Part shown: one piece after another, positions 1,789 through 23,750 of the stretch
Layout: each line of letters starts with the position of its first letter
How positions within the stretch are numbered: the stretch's first letter is position 1
Virus record (IMG/VR): IMGVR_UViG_3300009509_000033
Span: 1 to 55,205 of that record
DNA length: 55,205 bases
DNA from: a virus
Lineage: Duplodnaviria; Caudoviricetes
Reading direction: 5' to 3' (one strand)
Made by a program: the position numbers and the translations under genes
The notes under the pieces: model-generated
The model's database searches: none
The model's input: only the letters and a program-made list of their open reading frames with translations
What the model was told of the DNA's origin: nothing

Positions 1789-2856
1789 ATGGCTACGTGG
1801 AGTGGCATGTCGAGCAAACTCAGGGGGGCGGCAGTGATCGGAGCAATCCTGGTCACTGTTGCGGCCGGGGCGTCCGTGACCCCTTTCCTCGTCTCTTGCG
1901 AGGACACTGCGGAGGCTGGACAGAGCCCGGATGCTCGACGCGAGGCCGCCAAAGAGCGGAGGATGCGGGAGGCGGCCGAGTTCCGGGAGAGATGGGAGCA
2001 GCGAGAGCGCGAGAGCGAGGCCCGGTGGAAGCGGCTCGAAGAGGAGTCGGACCGGCAGAGAGCGGCTCTGGAGGAGGAGCTTGCCGCAACGCCCCAAAAG
2101 CATGTCCGCCGTGTTCGTCGGTTCCTGTGGGAGAGCCCTGCCGAGACGCGGGGGAAGATCTGGAATGTGCCCGTCGAGGAGAGCCACGACGCCCTTCTGA
2201 CGGCCTTGCTCCGAGTGTGCATCGCCGAGGCGGACGGGGACCCACAGGACTGCGCGGGCATCTGGCAGGTGGTCAAGAACAACCGCCGCCGGTCATGCGA
2301 CCGAGGGATGATCAGGCGCATCACGGAATGCGTGGAGGGCGAAGGCGAGACCTACATGTCAGCCCTCCGGAGACACCAGCGCCACGTGCTCGGGATGATC
2401 AAGGCCCGGAACAAGCGGGCGGTCTGGATCAGCAAACTCACCCCCGACTGTGAGATGCCAGAGGGCTACCCCGAGTCGGAGAACCACTGGGACTCCCACT
2501 ACGGCTCGAAGGTCTGTCCGCAAGCGGTGGCCGACGTGCGTCAGCTCATCGCCGGGAAGTTGCCGGAGTCGAGGCCAGGGCACCGCGTCCGATGGCTGCC
2601 AGGTCGCCCCGTCACCTGGGGAGGCCGCTGTGAGGCCAACGGAGGAGCCTGTGACGACCGTATCGCCTGCGCCCGAGGGCTCGCACGCATCCCGGGCACG
2701 GACACCCTGAACGCCTTCTGGTGCCGTCCTGGCGCGGCAGGCTGCCCGGATGACATCGACCCGATCTGCATTCAGATGGGGTACCCGAGCCGCCGAGTGA
2801 CAGAAACGGTCACTGCCGCAGAGCCCGAAGGATCTCCCTCCGACGAAAACTCTTGA
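1789..2856 (+). CDS. putative lipoprotein/membrane-anchored SleB (Hydrolase_2)-like cell-wall hydrolase, Cys-rich
   Basis: AGGAGG RBS; hydrophobic N-terminus ending in LVSC; coiled coil; LLRVCIAEADG..AGIWQVVKNNR resembles the SleB catalytic-Glu motif. Confidence 0.5.
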   Translation: MATWSGMSSKLRGAAVIGAILVTVAAGASVTPFLVSCEDTAEAGQSPDARREAAKERRMREAAEFRERWEQRERESEARWKRLEEESDRQRAALEEELAATPQKHVRRVRRFLWESPAETRGKIWNVPVEESHDALLTALLRVCIAEADGDPQDCAGIWQVVKNNRRRSCDRGMIRRITECVEGEGETYMSALRRHQRHVLGMIKARNKRAVWISKLTPDCEMPEGYPESENHWDSHYGSKVCPQAVADVRQLIAGKLPESRPGHRVRWLPGRPVTWGGRCEANGGACDDRIACARGLARIPGTDTLNAFWCRPGAAGCPDDIDPICIQMGYPSRRVTETVTAAEPEGSPSDENS

Positions 2857-2890
2857 CCTCGCGCTTTCTGGCGGGCAGTATCGTCAGGCT

Positions 2891-3102
2891 TTGGTTCGGT
2901 GGTGCCCACTGCTGGACCGAGGATTTGGTCATGACGAGACAATTTCTATATGCTACAGTTTGTTTCTGCGCGAGCCCACTCGGAGTACGGGTTCGAGGAT
3001 TGGCGTAGGCGCTCAGTCGCCACGCCCAACAGGCGCACCTAGCGCCACGTCATGACCGTCCTCGTTCTCGTTGGGCCTCCGAGTGGGCTCGCGTTTCCTT
3101 TT
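2891..3102 (+). ncRNA. structured leader / C4-like antisense RNA element upstream of the replication initiator
   Basis: perfect 17-bp inverted repeat 2969-2985/3077-3093 followed by a T tract; the bulge 3048-3057 is complementary to upstream 2927-2936. Confidence 0.55.
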
Positions 3103-3134
3103 GAGCGCGGGCCACGTGAGAGGAAGGTGGTTCC

Positions 3135-4517
3135 GTGCGCGTGGGTCCTGAGCAATTCATCTACCGTGACTTCGCTTTCATCGACGCGATGATCCTGCCC
3201 GTGGTCGGGCCGAAGACGATCGCCATCTACGACGTCCTCCGTCGCTACATCTGGAGGGCTGCCGACCGAGGTGCGAAGAAGTCGCGGGACGCCTTCAAGA
3301 AGGGAAAGCTCTCAGCCTCCATCACCCGGAGCAAGTTGGCCGAGCTGTCCGGCGTCTCGGTCCGCACCGTCCAGCGACACCTCAACCGCCTCAAAGACAT
3401 CCGATGGGTGGAGTGGGAGTGCGGGAACGGGACCGGGGAAACGGTCGTCTACGAGCTGGGCTTCCGCACCCCGGACGGCGTGGAGGTGTTCTACGCCGAC
3501 GCCAGCGCTCGGAGGCTCTGGCTCGGGCTCGAAGAGTTGGCCGTGGAGCAGGGGGCCGAGCGCGTGAACGACCTTCCCTGCGACGTCCGTCTCGCTTTCG
3601 CCCGAGGATGGTTCGACCCGGAGGGGGGTGGTGACAAAAATGTCACCAGGGTGGTGTCACCAGTGTCACCAGGGGTGGTGACAGAAATGGCACCTAGTAA
3701 TAGAGAACCCTTCGGGGAGGGAATAGAGAAGTCCGAGGAATATGCTGGGCGCTCCGCGCCAGCACACACCCCCGGCCCGAAACACTGGGATGCTCCCGCC
3801 GGTCGAGAACGAAGAAGTCCTTCCAAAGACAAAGAACGAGACTCAGAAGGCGCGGAGATTGCTCTTGACATTGCTCTTGACTCCGGCGAGGATGAGGATA
3901 GGTTCGCGCGGGCTGCGGCGGCCGGTGCCGAGGGGAAGGCCAAGGCCGACCACCAGACCGAGGCCAACATCCGGAGAGCGACGCGACGCCTGAAGGAGAA
4001 GAGGACGGAGCAGGTGGAGCGAGTCCAACAGGACGAGCAGAGGGCCAAGAACCTGAAGGGGGGCACACGCTACACGCACGCGATACTTCGAGCAGCACGC
4101 GACGCCTGGGATGTCTACGTCGAGCTGATCAAGGGCGCTCACCCGGCGATGCCCGTCGTGAGGTGGAACGCCGAGGGCAACGCGAAGGCGCGCGGACAGA
4201 TGTGCCGTCTCGTCGACATGTACGGTGGCGAAGCGACGAAGCAAGCGATACGTTATATGGTAGGGAACTGGGACGCGATCAACGCCCGATTCTTCAAGAA
4301 GGGGCCAGGCAGCGTTCCAAACTTCGGGCTGCTCACGTCCATGCACGAGTCCTTGTTCCGGGAGTCGGCGTTGTGGAGAGAGCACCGAGAGGTCATGGAG
4401 GAGTGGGAGGCGTGGCAGAGCGAGCACGCGGACGACGACGAGACCCCTCCTTCAGAGTTGCAGGGGCGCTATGAGAACGCACGCACAGCGCTGGAGTCTC
4501 TTGGGCTCGGGGTCTGA
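3135..4517 (+). CDS. HTH replication initiator (lambda O-like organisation)
   Basis: wHTH TRSKLAELSGVSVRTVQRHLNRL; internal iterons; followed by DnaC-like and DnaB genes. Confidence 0.75.
   Translation: MRVGPEQFIYRDFAFIDAMILPVVGPKTIAIYDVLRRYIWRAADRGAKKSRDAFKKGKLSASITRSKLAELSGVSVRTVQRHLNRLKDIRWVEWECGNGTGETVVYELGFRTPDGVEVFYADASARRLWLGLEELAVEQGAERVNDLPCDVRLAFARGWFDPEGGGDKNVTRVVSPVSPGVVTEMAPSNREPFGEGIEKSEEYAGRSAPAHTPGPKHWDAPAGRERRSPSKDKERDSEGAEIALDIALDSGEDEDRFARAAAAGAEGKAKADHQTEANIRRATRRLKEKRTEQVERVQQDEQRAKNLKGGTRYTHAILRAARDAWDVYVELIKGAHPAMPVVRWNAEGNAKARGQMCRLVDMYGGEATKQAIRYMVGNWDAINARFFKKGPGSVPNFGLLTSMHESLFRESALWREHREVMEEWEAWQSEHADDDETPPSELQGRYENARTALESLGLGV
3630..3694. repeat. three 18-bp palindromic iterons, putative replication origin
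   Basis: GGTGACAAAAATGTCACC (3630), GGTGTCACCAGTGTCACC (3653), GGTGACAGAAATGGCACC (3677), followed by AT-richer TAGTAATAGAGAA. Confidence 0.75.
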
Positions 4518-15905: not shown

Positions 15906-16455
15906 AGTTTTCATCTTGGGGGTGGACCCCGGCTTCGCCTCCTTCGGCTACAGCATGGTGCACCTCCTCCCGTCGATCGAGGAGGTGATGTTGACCGATG
16001 TGATTCGCACTCAGAAGTCCCCGAAGAAGCTGAACGTGAAGGCGGCCGACGACAACTTTCGGAGGTCGCAAGCCATCGCGGCTGTGCTCCACGAGGTCGT
16101 GAAGAAGTGGCAGCCGGTGGCCATCGCAGCCGAGGCCATGTCGTTTCCTCGGAACGCCAGCGCGGCGGCCAAGGTCGCCATGGCGTGGGGCATCCTCTCC
16201 GACATCTGCTACGTCTACCAGTTGCCGATGGTCCAGGCGACTCCACAGGAGATCAAGAAAGCTCTCTGCGACAACAAGTCGGCCACCAAGTCGGATATTC
16301 AACGCGCCTTGGAGGACCGCTACCCGAACCAATTCCTGCGGTTCACTCAGACTGTGCCGGCAGGACAGTGGGAGCACGGGTTCGACGCGGCCGGGGCGGT
16401 CGTGACGTGCCTGGACAGCGACGTCGTTCGTATGGCACGAGGGATGGCAGCATGA
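15895..16455 (+). CDS. ruvC: RuvC-like Holliday junction resolvase
   Basis: ILGVDPGFASFGY, AAE, TPQEIKKAL..NKSATK, DAAG. Confidence 0.88.
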   Translation: MSREVFILGVDPGFASFGYSMVHLLPSIEEVMLTDVIRTQKSPKKLNVKAADDNFRRSQAIAAVLHEVVKKWQPVAIAAEAMSFPRNASAAAKVAMAWGILSDICYVYQLPMVQATPQEIKKALCDNKSATKSDIQRALEDRYPNQFLRFTQTVPAGQWEHGFDAAGAVVTCLDSDVVRMARGMAA

Positions 16456-17626: not shown

Positions 17627-17858
17627 TCCGAGCATGACGCTGCCCATCACGCCCGACAACATCCACACCGAGTTGGAGCACGTCGAGCAGATCGTGAAGA
17701 AGTGGCGCGAGTTCGTTGGGACGGGCATCCCCGGTATCGACATGCCGGCACAGGATTCCGAGGCGAAGCTGGACTCGTTCCTCCGGCAGTTTACCGGAGA
17801 GATGCTCTACGTGGCCGGCAAGTGTCAGAACCTCGCCGTGGTGTTGTCCGAGCGATGA
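17619..17858 (+). CDS. hypothetical protein
   Basis: overlaps both flanking genes in the operon. Confidence 0.6.
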   Translation: MTDPSMTLPITPDNIHTELEHVEQIVKKWREFVGTGIPGIDMPAQDSEAKLDSFLRQFTGEMLYVAGKCQNLAVVLSER

Positions 17859-18661
17859 AACAGAAGACGGCGAAGACCAGGTTCGAGATGCTCGACCCTG
17901 GACTGTTCGATCCGAACCCATGGAACCCGAACACCATGGACCAGGACGACTACAACCGCCTCGTGCGTGAGATCGACGAGGTTGGTTTCATCGTCCCGGT
18001 CCAGGCGGTCCCAATCGAGGGCGGACGCTATCGGCTCATCGGTGGGGAGCATCGAATCGACGCCGCGAAAGACCTCCTCTTGAAGGAGGTTCCGGCGATG
18101 GTGCTGGACGGCCCTCGCTGGCAGGACGAGGAGCTACAGCAACTCGTCACGGTGCGCCTGAACGTGCTGAACGGGAAGATGAATCCCGAGAAGATGGCGA
18201 TCCTCTACAACCGCTACGCGAAGAAGTACGGGGAGGACGCTCTCCAGAACCTCTTCGCCTATACGGACAAGCACGCCTGGGACAAGCTGGTGAGCGGGAT
18301 CAAGCGCGGGCTATCGAAGGCAGCGCTCCCGAAAGAGAAGCAGAAGGAGTTTGCGGATCGGGCGAAGGAGGCCAAGACCCTCCAAGACCTCGAACGCATC
18401 CTGAATGAGCTGTGGTCCAGCTACGGCGACACGGTGAACCTCTCCTTCATGATCTTCACCTACGGCAAGCGAGAGCACTTCTACGTGGCCATGGACAAGA
18501 AGACCAGGGAAGCGGTCAAGCGCATCGGCGCGCACTGCAAGGGCCTCGCGAAGGACATCAACACGGTCCTCGGTCCGGCTCTCCAGGCCCTCGCTGACGT
18601 CCTCGACAAGTCCGATTCGGAGCCGAAGCAACAGCCCGAGCAGGATGACGTTGGCTTCTGA
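17855..18661 (+). CDS. second ParB/Srx-domain protein
   Basis: PNPWNPNTM, EIDEVGFIVPV, YRLIGGEHR; ATG at 17855; ends DDVGF. Confidence 0.8.
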   Translation: MKQKTAKTRFEMLDPGLFDPNPWNPNTMDQDDYNRLVREIDEVGFIVPVQAVPIEGGRYRLIGGEHRIDAAKDLLLKEVPAMVLDGPRWQDEELQQLVTVRLNVLNGKMNPEKMAILYNRYAKKYGEDALQNLFAYTDKHAWDKLVSGIKRGLSKAALPKEKQKEFADRAKEAKTLQDLERILNELWSSYGDTVNLSFMIFTYGKREHFYVAMDKKTREAVKRIGAHCKGLAKDINTVLGPALQALADVLDKSDSEPKQQPEQDDVGF

Positions 18662-18701: not shown

Positions 18702-21700
18702 GTGGCCATGGGTATGATGAGCGAGACCATCTCGAATCGGGCTCGACCTCTCTGGGAGGCGCAGCAAGAGCCAGACCCGGAGAAGTTCGTTCCCGTCTTC
18801 TCTTGGGACAGCAAGCACGTGTGGGTGTGGGTGAAGAAGCCGGGCGGGAAGGTCGTCGGCCCGGTAGAGGTCCCGCACGATCAGGTGCACAAATACAAGG
18901 GAAAGCTCGGTTGGCTGGCGAAGAAGACCGAGTACACCGCGCTCCTCGACCCCGGCTGGTACGCCGGAGTGGAAGACCTTTACCCCGCGACGTGGAAGCC
19001 GGGGGACTCGCTCGCCATCGGCCAGCTCCCATCTGAAAAGATCACGGCAGCGTTCAAGCCCTTCACCGTCACTCCGGAGAAGGCCGCGAAGAAGCCGAAG
19101 ACGATCCCTCCCGAGTTCACTCTGACCGGCAAGAAAGACCCCCACGGGTACCAGACGGTCGAGGATGAGGCGACCGGAGAGGAGTATTCCCTTCTCCCCG
19201 ACGACAAGATCGGCCAGTGGACTCCAGAGGAAGGCGTCTACTACATCGCGAAGAAGTTGCCTGGAGAGGATTGGGCGGTCCACCTCGACTCGCCGGTCTA
19301 CAAGCCGCACGAGTTGGAACCGAAGACGTCTCTGCCGCCTATGGACCCTCCCAAGGACTTCGAGCTACCCCCCAACTACACGATCAAGAAAGTCGCGCCG
19401 TCCTATGTCCTCGCCACGACCCCGGACGGCACGGACGTGAAGTGGATCAAGGCGACGGACCACTGGGTTCACGCCGACGACCCCACCAAGGAGCACGAGC
19501 CTCTTCAAGCGGCAGTTCCGAAGGTGAAGAAGTACCCGAAGGTGCCGAAGAAGAAGGCGGCCCCAAAGGCACCTCCAGCCGGCAAGCCATCGACTCCGAA
19601 GCCGGAGGAGAAGAAGGTCGTCTCGAAGACGGCGGAACCTGCTCCGCACATGACCAAGTACCTGGGGCAGGTGGACGACAACGGGCTTCCGCTTGTCGAT
19701 GAGGTCCCAGAGGGAGATTACGAGGAGGAGGAGGTCGCGAAGGGCCTCACCTTGCTTCCCGACGATCGGGTGGCCCGGTGGAGGCCGACCGAGGGCGTCT
19801 ATCTCATCTACGACTACGACCCCTACTTCGGCTTCATGTTCTCCAAGAGCGGTGAGACGGTCACGCCTGACGAGGCCAAGCAACTCATGGCCGCGCTGCA
19901 TCTCACGGTGCACGCTGGTCGGTATCACAAGTACGACGTGGCCGGGGCGGAGGCTCCTCAGCCGACAACGTACAGCGCCCCTCTCCCGGACCACTGCAAG
20001 TCCATCTCGGGCACGGATGTGAACGGCCTGCCCATGGTGCTGACGGTTCCGGAGGACCCCTACGATGAGGCTCACAAGCTCACTGTATTCCCGAACGCTC
20101 GCGTGGGCAGGTGGGACTCGCTCTCGAAGAAGTACCTGTACTGGGAGTGGCGAGAGATCCTCGGGGACTACAACTACTACCCGACGCATCCGGCCGAGTA
20201 CGTCTCCTTGAAGGAGATCCAGAAGATGCAAGCTCAGGCCGGCGGGGGGCCGGTTCCGGCGCCGGCTCCGGCGGTGATCACAGGGCTGATATGGCCCACG
20301 AAGCAGAAGCCGAAGCCGAAGGTCAGCAAGCCGAACGCTCCTCCCCCGAGCCCAAGCACGACGGCGGCAAAGCCTCCTCCCGTTCCCGCGAAGCCTCCAG
20401 TGCTCGCTGGCGCTCTGAAGCCGACAGGGAAGGACGACCCGCTCGGCTACCACATCGGCTCCTACAAGGGCAGCACCTACTCCATGCTGCCGGACAAGAA
20501 GGTCGGTGTCTGGTCTGCCGTGAGCGGGGCCTACATCCTCTACGACTACGACCCTCTTGGGGACGCCTTCTTCAACACCGGCTACACCTGGACGCCTCCA
20601 GGGAAGCACAAGGCGCTGGCCTACGTGTCGCTTGTCGGGCTCGACCACGCCCAGTTGGAGGACAGCACCGGGAAGAGTGTGGTCGTCCTCGCGAATGGGA
20701 AGTTTGCTCGACACGAGAAGGGGGCGTGGTTCGCCTACAAGGTGGACCCGGCGCAGGGGAAGAAGTTCGTTCCCACTGGCGAGGAGATCAGCTCCGAGAC
20801 GATGGCGGCCATCGCCAAGACGCCGAGCTACAAGACGATGAAGCCGACGGGCGAGGTCGATGAGAATGGCCTCCCCACCTACAAGATCGTCAAGGGTCCC
20901 ACGAAGGGGAAGGTCTTCACGATGCTCCCAACCGGGAGCCTCGCGCACTACAACCCGAAGTCCAAGTCCTACCGCCTCATGTCTTTCGACCCCGACATCG
21001 AGGGGTGGGAGCTGTCCTGGCCCAAGGAGACGTTCACCCTCAACGACATCAACGCGATGTACCTGAAGGTTGGCTCCGAGCCGATGGAGCCGAAGGAGAC
21101 GGCCCCGACCGAGAAGCCCGCTCCGAAGGTTCCGACGGAGCCGCAGACCCCGGTGTTCGTCACGCCTCAAGGAAAGCTCCCGGACCCCAAGACGCTCAAA
21201 GACCTGGGAGGTGTGGGGCTGTTGGGGGCAGGACCGGACAAGACGGTTCTCCAGGACCCGAAGACAGGGCAGCGCTACCTCTTCAAGCCGGCCCTTCCGA
21301 AGGGCGGAGCGAAGGTCGTGCAGCCCTACAAGGCGAAGTCGCAAGAGGGCTTCGCGGCAGTCGCGGCCCTTGTCCGTCCGGATGCCCACGTCCCAGTCGA
21401 GACCGTCACTCACAATGGGAAGTTGGGAACGATCCAGCCGATGCTGGACCTGGACCCGAACCAGCCGGACCTGAACGGCGTGAACCCGGCAGACCTCACG
21501 GATCAGCAGAAGCTCGACGTGGCCGATGAGCACCTCCTTGACTGGCTCATGTCGCAGCACGACTCGTTCGCTTCAAACTTCGTGATCACGAAGGAGGGGC
21601 GCGTCGTCGGCATCGACAAGGAGCAGGGCTGGAGGTACGTCAACGACCCGAAGTACCCAGACAGGTTGGCCACGGACTACAAGCCCAACTCGGAGATCTA

Positions 21701-23750
21701 CGGGGAGCAGGAGCCCTACTACAACAAGTTCTGGAAAGCCTTCGCGGCCGGGAAGATGGACTTCGATCCGACCCAGATGGCTCCGGCTCTGTCTCGTGTC
21801 GAGGCGATGGACCCGCTCGTGCTGGAGAAGGCACTCTCGGAGTACGCTGACACGGTGAAGCGGATGCAGGGGCCGGCGAAGGCATATGACCGCTACGCCT
21901 TCATGAAGCAGATGCTCAGCCGCAAGAACACCCTCCGGTACGACTTCGAGAAGTTCATCACGGAGCAGTACGAGAAGCGGACCGGGAAGAAGGGCGTGTT
22001 CACCTTCAAGGCCGGGTGGAAGCCGGAGGGGGTCGAGGAAGGGCCGAAGTACGAGACCATCTCTCAGTCGGCCCGGGACTGGGCTCTGAAGGAGTTTGGT
22101 CCGAAGGCCCTGAAGCCTCACAAGGACTTCCCGGAGCTGATCCTCGTGCGCGTGCAAAACGACGAGCCGATCACAAAGGTGCAGGAGTTCCTGAGCAAGA
22201 TGGGCGTCGAACCGGCAACGACGGACCCGGACGGGAACCCGCTTCCCATGAACCCGATCCTCGGCTCCAACTACAACAGCGTCATCGTGAAGGTGTCCGA
22301 CCTGGAGAAGGTGGTCAAGCGCAAGGTCGAGATCAAGAAGGACCCGGGGCAGAAGTACGCCGACCACACTGGGGTTCCGACCTACCAGGCACAGGTTCTC
22401 GCGCCCCCGGACGCGCCTGGGAACGTGGACGGCCTCGCGACGGCGCACAAGGAGCACCTCGGCCCGCTCGGGAAGGACTTCACGCTCGACTCGGATGCCG
22501 TGGAGCAGCAGACGGCCTCGGTCCAGCGAGTCATCGGCCAGGACGGAGAGACCTACTACCGGGCTCACTTCAAACTCCGCCGGCCGTACTGGGAGCCGCT
22601 GGTTCACACGGGCAAGTCCGGGACCTTCACGTGGCCGCTCGGGGCCTACGAGCCGGACAAGGACGCGCTCGTGATCAGCAGCTACCAATCGGGAGCCCAC
22701 TCTGAGCCAGCTCGCGTCTTCAAGTCCGGCAAGGACGAACTCTACCTCATCACGGGCGAGACGAACTGGGCGTTCATGGGATCGGTCTACGTGCTCATCC
22801 GATCTGGCGAGGGGAAGGTCAAGGCGGCCCTCACGAAGCTGTTGAAGGAGCTGGGTCTCGACAAGAAGGTGCTGACAGACCCGACGTCGGAGGACATCCG
22901 GCTCTACAACCTCACGCAGGCCCTCTGGTACCTCTCACCGAAGGCGCACAAAGAGCTGGCCGACTCAGGGGACCTCACGCTCGATGCCGTGACCAAGCGG
23001 TTGAAGGGGCGCCTCACCAAGGAGGAGATGGAGGGGATTCGCCAGGTGACCGGCACGGTGGGACGCGGGTCCGCGATGGTTCCTGGTCTCTGGAGAAAAC
23101 TCGGAGGAGGGACCCCGGAGAAGCCGGTCATCCGCTTCGTGTTCTGGAACGTCCGAACGACGAGCGTCCCGAAGATCCTTCGCTCGGCTGCCACAGGCGT
23201 TCACGAGCGGGTCCGAATGGGGCTGCCGGGCGGGGCGACGGGGCACGGGGCGTCGGAGGAGCAGGACATGGCGACGGGTGGCGCCGATACGACCACGATG
23301 CGTATCTCGACAGCGCAGGCCGGCAATGTGCCGATCAGCGTCGTTGGGAACATCCATCGGGAGGTGCGGATCATCATCGCTCCTGAGCTACTCGATCGTC
23401 TGGACATCTCGCTGGCGACTGGTGACGCCTTCGGGTGCCAACGCTACTCTGGGTACAAGAGCGAATACTTCCGTCAACGCCAGGGCATGAGCAACGCGAT
23501 CAAGACCTTCGATGGAGGTGGGGCGTCCACGCATAAAGGCAACACCGAGATTCAGATCCGACGTGGTGTCCCACCGAATCTGATCAAGAGGGTGTGCACG
23601 ACGTCCGAGCACCACCGCAAGGAGGTGCTGGCGAACTGCGAGAAGGTCGGCATCACGGAGCACAACAAGGTGCCCATCGAAGATTTCGTCGTGGTTGAGG
23701 ACAACGCCGGGACCATCTATAATAAGTACATAAAGCCTTTGGGGTACTGA
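18702..23750 (+). CDS. 1682-aa multidomain (polyvalent-type) protein: about six beta-rich repeats, a HipA/PI3K-like kinase fold and a possible C-terminal ADP-ribosyltransferase-like domain
   Basis: repeat G..D.NG.P...LLP...V..W....G.Y; kinase motifs YLFKP, DWLMSQHDSFASNF, GIDKE; C-terminal SEEQDMATGGAD and NTEIQIRRGV. Confidence 0.7.
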   Translation: MAMGMMSETISNRARPLWEAQQEPDPEKFVPVFSWDSKHVWVWVKKPGGKVVGPVEVPHDQVHKYKGKLGWLAKKTEYTALLDPGWYAGVEDLYPATWKPGDSLAIGQLPSEKITAAFKPFTVTPEKAAKKPKTIPPEFTLTGKKDPHGYQTVEDEATGEEYSLLPDDKIGQWTPEEGVYYIAKKLPGEDWAVHLDSPVYKPHELEPKTSLPPMDPPKDFELPPNYTIKKVAPSYVLATTPDGTDVKWIKATDHWVHADDPTKEHEPLQAAVPKVKKYPKVPKKKAAPKAPPAGKPSTPKPEEKKVVSKTAEPAPHMTKYLGQVDDNGLPLVDEVPEGDYEEEEVAKGLTLLPDDRVARWRPTEGVYLIYDYDPYFGFMFSKSGETVTPDEAKQLMAALHLTVHAGRYHKYDVAGAEAPQPTTYSAPLPDHCKSISGTDVNGLPMVLTVPEDPYDEAHKLTVFPNARVGRWDSLSKKYLYWEWREILGDYNYYPTHPAEYVSLKEIQKMQAQAGGGPVPAPAPAVITGLIWPTKQKPKPKVSKPNAPPPSPSTTAAKPPPVPAKPPVLAGALKPTGKDDPLGYHIGSYKGSTYSMLPDKKVGVWSAVSGAYILYDYDPLGDAFFNTGYTWTPPGKHKALAYVSLVGLDHAQLEDSTGKSVVVLANGKFARHEKGAWFAYKVDPAQGKKFVPTGEEISSETMAAIAKTPSYKTMKPTGEVDENGLPTYKIVKGPTKGKVFTMLPTGSLAHYNPKSKSYRLMSFDPDIEGWELSWPKETFTLNDINAMYLKVGSEPMEPKETAPTEKPAPKVPTEPQTPVFVTPQGKLPDPKTLKDLGGVGLLGAGPDKTVLQDPKTGQRYLFKPALPKGGAKVVQPYKAKSQEGFAAVAALVRPDAHVPVETVTHNGKLGTIQPMLDLDPNQPDLNGVNPADLTDQQKLDVADEHLLDWLMSQHDSFASNFVITKEGRVVGIDKEQGWRYVNDPKYPDRLATDYKPNSEIYGEQEPYYNKFWKAFAAGKMDFDPTQMAPALSRVEAMDPLVLEKALSEYADTVKRMQGPAKAYDRYAFMKQMLSRKNTLRYDFEKFITEQYEKRTGKKGVFTFKAGWKPEGVEEGPKYETISQSARDWALKEFGPKALKPHKDFPELILVRVQNDEPITKVQEFLSKMGVEPATTDPDGNPLPMNPILGSNYNSVIVKVSDLEKVVKRKVEIKKDPGQKYADHTGVPTYQAQVLAPPDAPGNVDGLATAHKEHLGPLGKDFTLDSDAVEQQTASVQRVIGQDGETYYRAHFKLRRPYWEPLVHTGKSGTFTWPLGAYEPDKDALVISSYQSGAHSEPARVFKSGKDELYLITGETNWAFMGSVYVLIRSGEGKVKAALTKLLKELGLDKKVLTDPTSEDIRLYNLTQALWYLSPKAHKELADSGDLTLDAVTKRLKGRLTKEEMEGIRQVTGTVGRGSAMVPGLWRKLGGGTPEKPVIRFVFWNVRTTSVPKILRSAATGVHERVRMGLPGGATGHGASEEQDMATGGADTTTMRISTAQAGNVPISVVGNIHREVRIIIAPELLDRLDISLATGDAFGCQRYSGYKSEYFRQRQGMSNAIKTFDGGGASTHKGNTEIQIRRGVPPNLIKRVCTTSEHHRKEVLANCEKVGITEHNKVPIEDFVVVEDNAGTIYNKYIKPLGY

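Follow-up and report, generated by a model that had tools for sequence, protein, structure and literature searches.

A conserved, terminator-ended leader RNA with two co-varying contacts precedes the putative replication initiator gene of an uncultivated myovirus

The DNA analysed here, referred to as the window, is the whole 55,205-base stretch of the virus record IMGVR_UViG_3300009509_000033 (Caudoviricetes), which is estimated to be 34% complete. It encodes a myovirus gene set (portal, capsid, sheath, and terminase) together with a full replication set, and the + strand carries nearly all of its predicted genes. A tRNA/tmRNA search of the window found none. The element described below occupies a 278-nt spacer between an open reading frame (ORF) of 355 amino acids (1789-2856) and a winged-helix-turn-helix (winged-HTH) ORF of 460 amino acids (3135-4517, + strand). 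The latter begins with a GTG codon at 3135, which is preceded by a purine-rich ribosome site (3120-3129), and shows a weak match (E 7.7e-4) to phrog_678, annotated as 'replication initiation O-like'. Genes for a DnaC/DnaI-like loader, a DnaB helicase, and a primase follow on its 3′ side, all on the + strand, and it is from this gene context that the winged-HTH protein is taken as the putative replication initiator.

The upstream 355-residue ORF belongs to no Pfam, PHROG, or NCBIfam family. Its N-terminus, inspected by eye, resembles a lipoprotein signal (a hydrophobic stretch followed by LVSC), and its C-terminal part is rich in cysteine. An ORF of 1682 amino acids (18702-23750) is located among replication and recombination genes.

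An earlier note on this DNA had placed a C4-like antisense or attenuator switch in front of the initiator gene, and the sequence features on which it drew are all present where it had put them. A repeat search recovered two inverted repeats with 100% complementarity, one of 17 nt (I1, 2969-2985/3077-3093) and one of 10 nt (I2, 2927-2936/3048-3057, GGTCATGACG/CGTCATGACC). In addition, CGAGGATT occurs as a direct repeat at 2918 and 2994, and the short motifs TTGGGC (3071-3076), GCCCA (2904-2908), GCCCAAC (3024-3030), and GTCCTCG (3058-3064) are found. The perfect 17-bp stem followed by a T-run, with two bulges in the 3′ arm, is likewise visible in the sequence and in the predicted fold.

The + strand of this region has a predicted folding energy of -110.3 kcal/mol, compared with -78.4 +/- 4.6 kcal/mol for shuffled sequences (z -6.9; none of 200 shuffles was as good), and the fold of the - strand is weaker (z -4.3). 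The structure consists of three parts, namely a 15-pair hairpin (HP1), an AT-rich spacer, and a long hairpin (2968-3094), and all features given here are read on the + strand. HP1 spans 2889-2922 (stem 2889-2903/2908-2922), its foot being the 5′ end of the putative transcript from promoter P1 (see below), and its loop contains site b (GCCCA, 2904-2908). Directly 3′ of HP1 lies site a (GGTCATGACG, 2927-2936), which is single-stranded. The long hairpin, together with its tail, forms a small-RNA domain of approximately 130-135 nt (2968-3102). It is closed by stem S1, whose 5′ arm (2968-2985) pairs with 3077-3094, the predicted fold lengthening the 17-bp stem to 18 pairs through G2968-U3094. Inside S1 are the stems S2 (2987-2991/3067-3071) and S3 (2994-3000/3058-3064), whose 5′ strands occupy 2987-3000, and an apical domain (3001-3046). 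On the 3′ side, segment a' (CGTCATGACC, 3048-3057), complementary to a, lies in a junction or bulge, and segment b' (TTGGGC, 3071-3076), complementary to b, forms the bulge that separates S2 from S1. In the predicted fold, the two 3′-arm bulges themselves comprise TGACC (3053-3057) and TGGGC (3072-3076).

Relatives were collected by protein-guided and pattern scans, and five distinct copies of the element were obtained: those of the window, L018, L003 (identical to L004), L002 (identical to L017), and L019. The gene neighbours are constant, the element lying between the same upstream gene and an initiator-type gene. The proteins of the relatives are only 43-82% identical, and the apical domain is almost invariant. 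According to nhmmer and covariance-model searches, each genome holds one element, as found in the window, in a 184.7-kb relative (88% complete), and in an 81.9-kb relative. A distant initiator relative (L024, 25% identity) has neither the spacer nor the element. In L019, an extra ORF (263-694) separates the element from the initiator gene and encodes a 143-residue paralog of the initiator winged-HTH domain (BLASTP E 4e-5); in L003/L004, a 53-residue remnant (L003:2856-3016) occupies the same interval in a different frame. Because of these extra ORFs, the element can be said to sit ahead of whichever gene comes first. Small ORFs spanning the spacer were ruled out, since 4-nt and 8-nt indels among the relatives disrupt all frames, and a hairpin at the initiator start was dropped as, judged by eye, it has no conservation in L002.

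Broader scans added no further copies. A scan of viral contigs with the 17-mer of the stem gave seven stretches, none of which was homologous outside the 17-mer, and an 18-mer scan gave five, namely three known relatives and two chance matches. An apical-motif scan returned 92 stretches, and nhmmer over 114 records recovered only the five known sequences; L026 proved on checking to be a chance match. In the species-genome collection, a protein scan found no relatives among 265 candidate stretches and a DNA pattern found two stretches, both by chance, while blastn against a phage record collection gave no match.

The helices are maintained by compensatory change. In the five-sequence alignment, 94.1% of the pair cells hold standard pairs, compared with 37-50% when the partners are slid by one to three columns, and nine pairs are changed on both sides, compared with zero to four in the slid controls. 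For HP1, 13 pairs were counted, of which four are changed on both sides and many are U-G (85.9% of cells paired); S1 has 18 pairs, three with double changes (98.9% paired); and S2/S3 (helix 4 of the alignment) have 11 pairs, one with a double change (100% paired). A read-derived variant, a more distant form assembled in contigs of two DNA runs, carries further compensatory changes, namely 2978 A>G/3084 T>C and 2982 G>A/3080 C>T within S1 and 2999 A>G/3059 T>C within S3. Among the 20 runs listed for the region, none is an RNA run. HP1 contains many G-U pairs, and S1, S2, and S3 have some as well; read on the opposite strand, they would be C-A mismatches. Since these pairs fit the + strand only, and since the U-run is also found on that strand only, the element is assigned to a + strand RNA.

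The apical 46 nt are the exception in that their pairs (helices 5 and 6) are invariant across the relatives, hence no covariation favours either of two possible forms. The RNAalifold consensus is a three-way junction with two hairpins (3002-3026 and 3032-3046), and the single-sequence minimum free energy (MFE) structure is one extended stem. In the junction model, the 4-nt indel seen among the relatives is located in the loop of the first apical hairpin.

The long hairpin ends in the signature of an intrinsic terminator, with a G+C-rich stem of 18 pairs (3′ arm 3077-3094) followed by the T-run TTTCCTTTT (3094-3102). A terminator scan marked a terminator-like site at 3072-3091 plus its tail, and the relatives have CTTTTTTAT, with six U. 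The distance from the T-run to the GTG start is 32 nt, so that any transcript of the replication genes has to run through the terminator. Immediately after the T-run, a conserved GCGCGGGCC (3105-3113) is similar to the base of the S1 5′ arm. On visual inspection, this segment could form 8-9 pairs with the S1 3′ arm in all five sequences, with the U-run as the loop; energetically it is no match for the 18-pair S1.

Two promoter-like boxes accompany the structure. Putative promoter P1 (2853-2881) comprises TTGACC (2853-2858), a 17-nt spacer, and CAGTAT (2876-2881), and would initiate transcription at the foot of HP1. Its hexamers are invariant and its spacer variable in the window, L002, L003, and L018; the L019 sequence starts at the -10 block. 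The stop codon of the 355-residue ORF (2854-2856) falls within the P1 -35 hexamer. Putative promoter P2 is a conserved box, CTATATGCTACAGT (2946-2959), which contains TG (2951-2952) and TACAGT (2954-2959) in the manner of an extended -10 promoter. The pattern TG-N-TA-NN-GT occurs in all five sequences, 8 nt ahead of the first base of the long hairpin, and the mean pairwise identity of the box is 0.85, compared with 0.36 and 0.68 in its flanks. Such a placement is what would be expected of a promoter producing the hairpin alone. Because the box directly precedes it, the hairpin is probably also made separately, as a small RNA of approximately 130 nt. A promoter scan of the window reported neither P1 nor P2, both of which fell below its threshold.

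Two contacts are predicted between the leader and the 3′ arm of the long hairpin. The a:a' contact forms Watson-Crick runs of 10, 9, 8, 10, and 7 nt (the last reaching 12 with G-U) in the five relatives, although their sequences differ. Runs of such length were matched by 1, 0, 18, 0, and 133 of 5000 shuffles, respectively (window: a run of 10, 1/5000), the number of related sequences being only five, so that these and the other shuffle controls overstate independence. The b:b' contact, between the HP1 loop and the bulge beside S1, has Watson-Crick runs of 5 in the window, 9 in L018, 8 in L003, 9 in L002, and, as read by eye, 7 in L019, and L018 shows a double change from G-C to A-U (alignment columns 21/204). 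In the read-derived variant, a:a' is kept by compensatory changes in both partners (2927 G>T/3057 C>A), and a U-G pair results from 3055 A>G. The earlier note had made its reading depend on complementarity being conserved in relatives, and this is what was found, with co-variation, in five of five sequences plus the variant.

Within the small-RNA domain, segment a' varies most, with an identity of 0.49 compared with 0.82-0.93 in neighbouring parts. It is also predicted to be accessible, the mean probability of being unpaired being 0.46-0.69 for a' and 0.61-0.79 for b', compared with 0.24-0.30 for the whole RNA. When the leaders and 3′ arms of all five elements were combined in a 5x5 duplex matrix, the cognate duplex was the strongest in all five rows (-39.8 to -42.5 versus -23.6 to -39.7 kcal/mol). 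The order of the sites is 5′ b..a, then a'..b' 3′, with spacings, estimated by eye, of 15-20 nt in the leader and approximately 12-14 nt from a' to b', an arrangement that would fit the docking of an intact HP1 beside S2-S3. On comparative sequence evidence, the element is confirmed as a real, conserved structured RNA of the + strand with two co-varying contacts. The RNA-level element that the earlier note had envisaged before a putative initiator operon is borne out to this extent, namely by the two unpaired 3′-arm segments that match upstream sites and by G-U pairs that suit only the + strand.

In the window (GTCATGAC; 2928-2935 and 3049-3056) and in L002 (ATAGCTAT; 2793-2802), site a contains an 8-nt palindrome; in L003, L018, and L019, it is non-palindromic. 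As GTCATGAC is palindromic, the a/a' pair of the window is also a direct repeat (D2), and it is the relatives that identify complementarity as the property under conservation. Two palindromic a sites in five are more than chance would suggest, and RNA dimers or the binding of a dimeric protein are possible.

The energetics of a switch between leader pairing and terminator formation were calculated for all five sequences. In transcripts cut at the end of b', the MFE structure pairs the leader with the 3′ part of the hairpin in five of five, with a gain of 5.2 to 17.0 kcal/mol beyond separate folding, and when S1 is forbidden the best fold runs the leader along the entire 3′ arm, again in five of five. 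In full-length transcripts, the terminator form is the more stable in all five, by 2.3 to 17.3 kcal/mol. Compared with shuffled leaders, the native leader gains more from pairing at the decision point in only three of the five, where its gain was equalled by 1 (L018), 2 (L003), and 4 (L019) of 200 shuffles; it is not above shuffles in the window (78/200) or in L002 (52/200), and the cognate leader is the best in only three of the five columns. The mutually exclusive pairings of the two CGAGGATT copies with GTCCTCG, described in the earlier note, do exist, but their proposed role is backed only in part by energy calculations.

The reading that is preferred here, tentatively and at a little under even confidence, is that the spacer (2853-3134) is a conserved regulatory leader RNA of P4-CI-like or attenuator-like character, in which an RNA of approximately 130 nt pairs with the leader, sets read-through into the replication genes, and exerts negative feedback. 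In such a scheme, a transcript from P1 would present HP1 first (with b in its loop), then single-stranded a, and, approximately 30 nt further on, the terminator-ended hairpin; the upstream genes could supply transcripts as well. While the transcript is nascent, the leader (b, the 3′ arm of HP1, and a) could capture the 3′ arm of the hairpin as that arm emerges, which would slow or block closure of the terminator stem and leave the replication genes on. Free small RNA, arising from P2 or from terminated transcripts, would act in trans, making a two-point kissing contact with sites b and a on leaders still being transcribed. With its leader occupied, the nascent hairpin would fold as a terminator, and expression would be turned off. 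The outcome would be dosage-dependent negative feedback by a regulator from the same strand as its target.

A bolder form of this proposal, possible though doubtful, makes the terminated leader itself the repressor. A same-strand small RNA would act against nascent copies that still have their upstream antiterminator strand, and a/a' would define 'compatibility groups', with exclusion between lytic phages as a consequence.

A somewhat improbable alternative to regulation by a free small RNA is a leader switch acting purely in cis, in which the contacts form within one transcript and the choice between termination and read-through is made by a small ligand or a protein, such as a host factor or the winged-HTH initiator, bound to the apex. 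The near-invariance of the apex (3001-3046), despite the 43-82% identity of the proteins, is as expected for a binding site, and the b..a / a'..b' order suits intramolecular antiparallel pairing. The alternative folds in all five sequences, as well as the position of P2 under the threshold of the promoter scan, point in the same direction. However, the TG-N-TA-NN-GT box 8 nt before the hairpin in five of five sequences is most simply a promoter, and the fast divergence of a/a' with cognate specificity, which a cis fold does not need, typifies recognition in trans; moreover, no Rfam riboswitch or leader family matches.

A search for further targets bears on whether the hairpin might instead be a stand-alone phage small RNA, with host or unsampled phage mRNAs as its true targets and the upstream a and b serving merely as a mask or sponge in precursors, a role that has been proposed for such sites in other systems. 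The b..a pattern occurs three times in the window, always within the element, where 0.08 would be expected. At up to one mismatch, GGTCATGACG has seven matches in the window, which is the chance level, and none of them is in the spacer except a and a'. No downstream copy of the a2/b2 type (seqC-like) was found in the window at the initiator ribosome site, and additional copies of the S1 motif are not above chance. On the + strand of the 184.7-kb relative (88% complete), the a 8-mer of the L003 type is found once, inside that phage's own leader. By energy alone, the leader site ranks only approximately 13th among + strand sites of the window. A site in a RuvC-like gene (16361-16420; -49.6 kcal/mol with the hairpin 3′ arm) was rejected as two relatives have lost its complementarity of the a type, and a multi-site nut/put-like system is excluded by the single copy per genome. 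Because the b..a pattern is confined to the element, the 8-mer is single, and the RuvC site is unconserved, the leader itself is the only target that these comparisons support.

The stand-alone small RNA appears unlikely on this evidence. It would account for the promoter-like box and terminator of the hairpin's own and for the predicted accessibility of a' and b', and 66% of the phage genome and the entire host genome lie outside the sample. Yet the window has no second b..a site, the a 8-mer has no further + strand copy in the 88%-complete relative, and the single strong external site, in the RuvC gene, is unconserved. In addition, a' is almost fully replaced between close relatives, so that a conserved external target would have to co-vary with it.

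A DNA-level element is very unlikely. Here, a and a' would be inverted operator or iteron copies bound by a protein such as the initiator, with the AT-rich stretch (2937-2967) as an unwinding region or promoter, and the locus would be an origin or an autoregulated operator. The palindromic a of the window and L002 would also suit a dimeric DNA-binding protein, the putative initiator gene is adjacent, an AT-rich island separates both sites, and operator specificities are able to co-evolve with proteins. On the other hand, imperfect a:a' positions (in L019, and at 3055 of the variant) are G-U compatible on the + strand, the helices that place a' at a junction or bulge and b within a hairpin loop themselves co-vary with G-U pairs, only two copies exist with no iteron array, and the sites are not palindromes in L003, L018, and L019.

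Finally, a plain strong intrinsic terminator or insulator between operons, with complementarities left over from a local duplication of the 5′ arm, is barely credible: S1 plus the U-run is canonical and the leader order GCCCAC..CGAGGATT repeats the motif order of the hairpin 5′ arm, as a duplication would, but leftovers would decay, whereas a:a' has been rebuilt with new sequence in every lineage, and the gap from the terminator to the initiator gene is too short to hold a promoter, so that termination would silence the replication genes.

With regard to known RNA families, Rfam gave no match at gathering score over the whole window, and the sole hit at E<=10 in 2800-3200 (401 nt) was MIR8788, a spurious miRNA hairpin scoring 23.4 bits against a gathering score of 124. 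The element of the four relatives was also unmatched. Membership in C4, c4-2, or c4-a1b1, for which the earlier note had suggested a covariance-model check, was found neither at gathering score nor at E<=10; judged by these models, the element does not belong to C4. It appears to represent a new RNA family, similar in logic to known phage and plasmid RNA controls. No paper on the element was found in literature searches aimed at known systems, which is weak evidence of absence.

C4 RNA is approximately 77 nt long, and P1/P7 heteroimmunity is due to differing C4 specificity segments. In P1, the C4 sites recur further downstream as second copies (a2, b2) that cover the ribosome site of the gene under control. 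The element differs in its length of approximately 130 nt with a long stem and in its position before replication genes, since C4 controls the icd/ant antirepressor genes of the immunity region. With the C4 RNAs of P1/P7 (RF01695, c4-a1b1; PMC2864571, PMC8198154), the likeness is that two segments of one structured RNA match two upstream sites of the same transcript and that the specificity segments vary between related phages.

Among the systems compared, the one that the element would most resemble in its working is the CI RNA of P4, a small RNA that is derived from the leader of the replication operon and that pairs with sites in the same leader, which leads to premature termination and turns the replication genes off, as outlined in PMC4825925. 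With this RNA, the element shares the location in a replication-operon leader on the same strand (the free RNA being a putative product here) and the complementarity to a site upstream of the RNA within the same leader. It differs in having two recognition segments, where P4 has one seqB, and in addressing upstream sites only, where P4 targets seqA upstream and seqC downstream (PMC4825925). In addition, it has an intrinsic terminator and probably also a promoter of its own, in contrast to the P4 CI RNA, which is cut out by processing, and P4 is a phage-plasmid, whereas the element resides in a large myovirus in which no lysogeny genes were found.

The same source (PMC4825925) offers a further parallel in the Gifsy-1 IsrK/STnc1160 RNA, a prophage leader RNA with a Rho-independent terminator and with short and read-through forms, whose complementary segments were proposed to modulate termination. 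The element has no Rfam IsrK match, and its gene context differs. In the rep leaders of pT181 and pIP501, formation of a terminator depends on pairing with a small antisense RNA, which provides negative feedback of the copy-number type, according to PMC5703833. The likeness would be a terminator in an initiator-gene leader whose formation may be governed by RNA-RNA pairing; the differences are that the countertranscript there comes from the opposite strand, whereas the regulator here would come from the same strand as the mRNA and would be the terminator hairpin itself (PMC5703833).

The temperate or plasmid state that the earlier note had deduced did not find support. Searches of the window and of two relatives, of which one is 88% complete, gave no tyrosine integrase, serine recombinase, or ParA-type ATPase, the records being incomplete. 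The window does encode two proteins with a ParB_N domain (184-1239 on the - strand and 17702-18661 on the + strand). Because a ParA-type ATPase is absent from the three records, these proteins more likely have nuclease or other ParB-like functions than form a partition system.

P4 is the main known case in which a same-strand leader RNA controls replication genes by RNA alone, with related immunity RNAs in enterobacterial phages of the P1/P7 type. The element would add an RNA family unrelated to known ones, found in large, high-G+C, uncultivated myoviruses of sediment metagenomes. If the terminated leader is itself the repressor, gene-dosage feedback would operate on the replication operon of a myovirus of approximately 190 kb in which no lysogeny genes were found. 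The RNA of a resident phage would then turn off replication genes in co-infecting phages of its own type and not in those of other types. The element would constitute a compact, testable switch of approximately 220 nt, and its five orthogonal recognition pairs on one conserved scaffold would be useful for studies of RNA specificity. RNA-RNA feedback on replication may be commoner in phages than the few model cases indicate.
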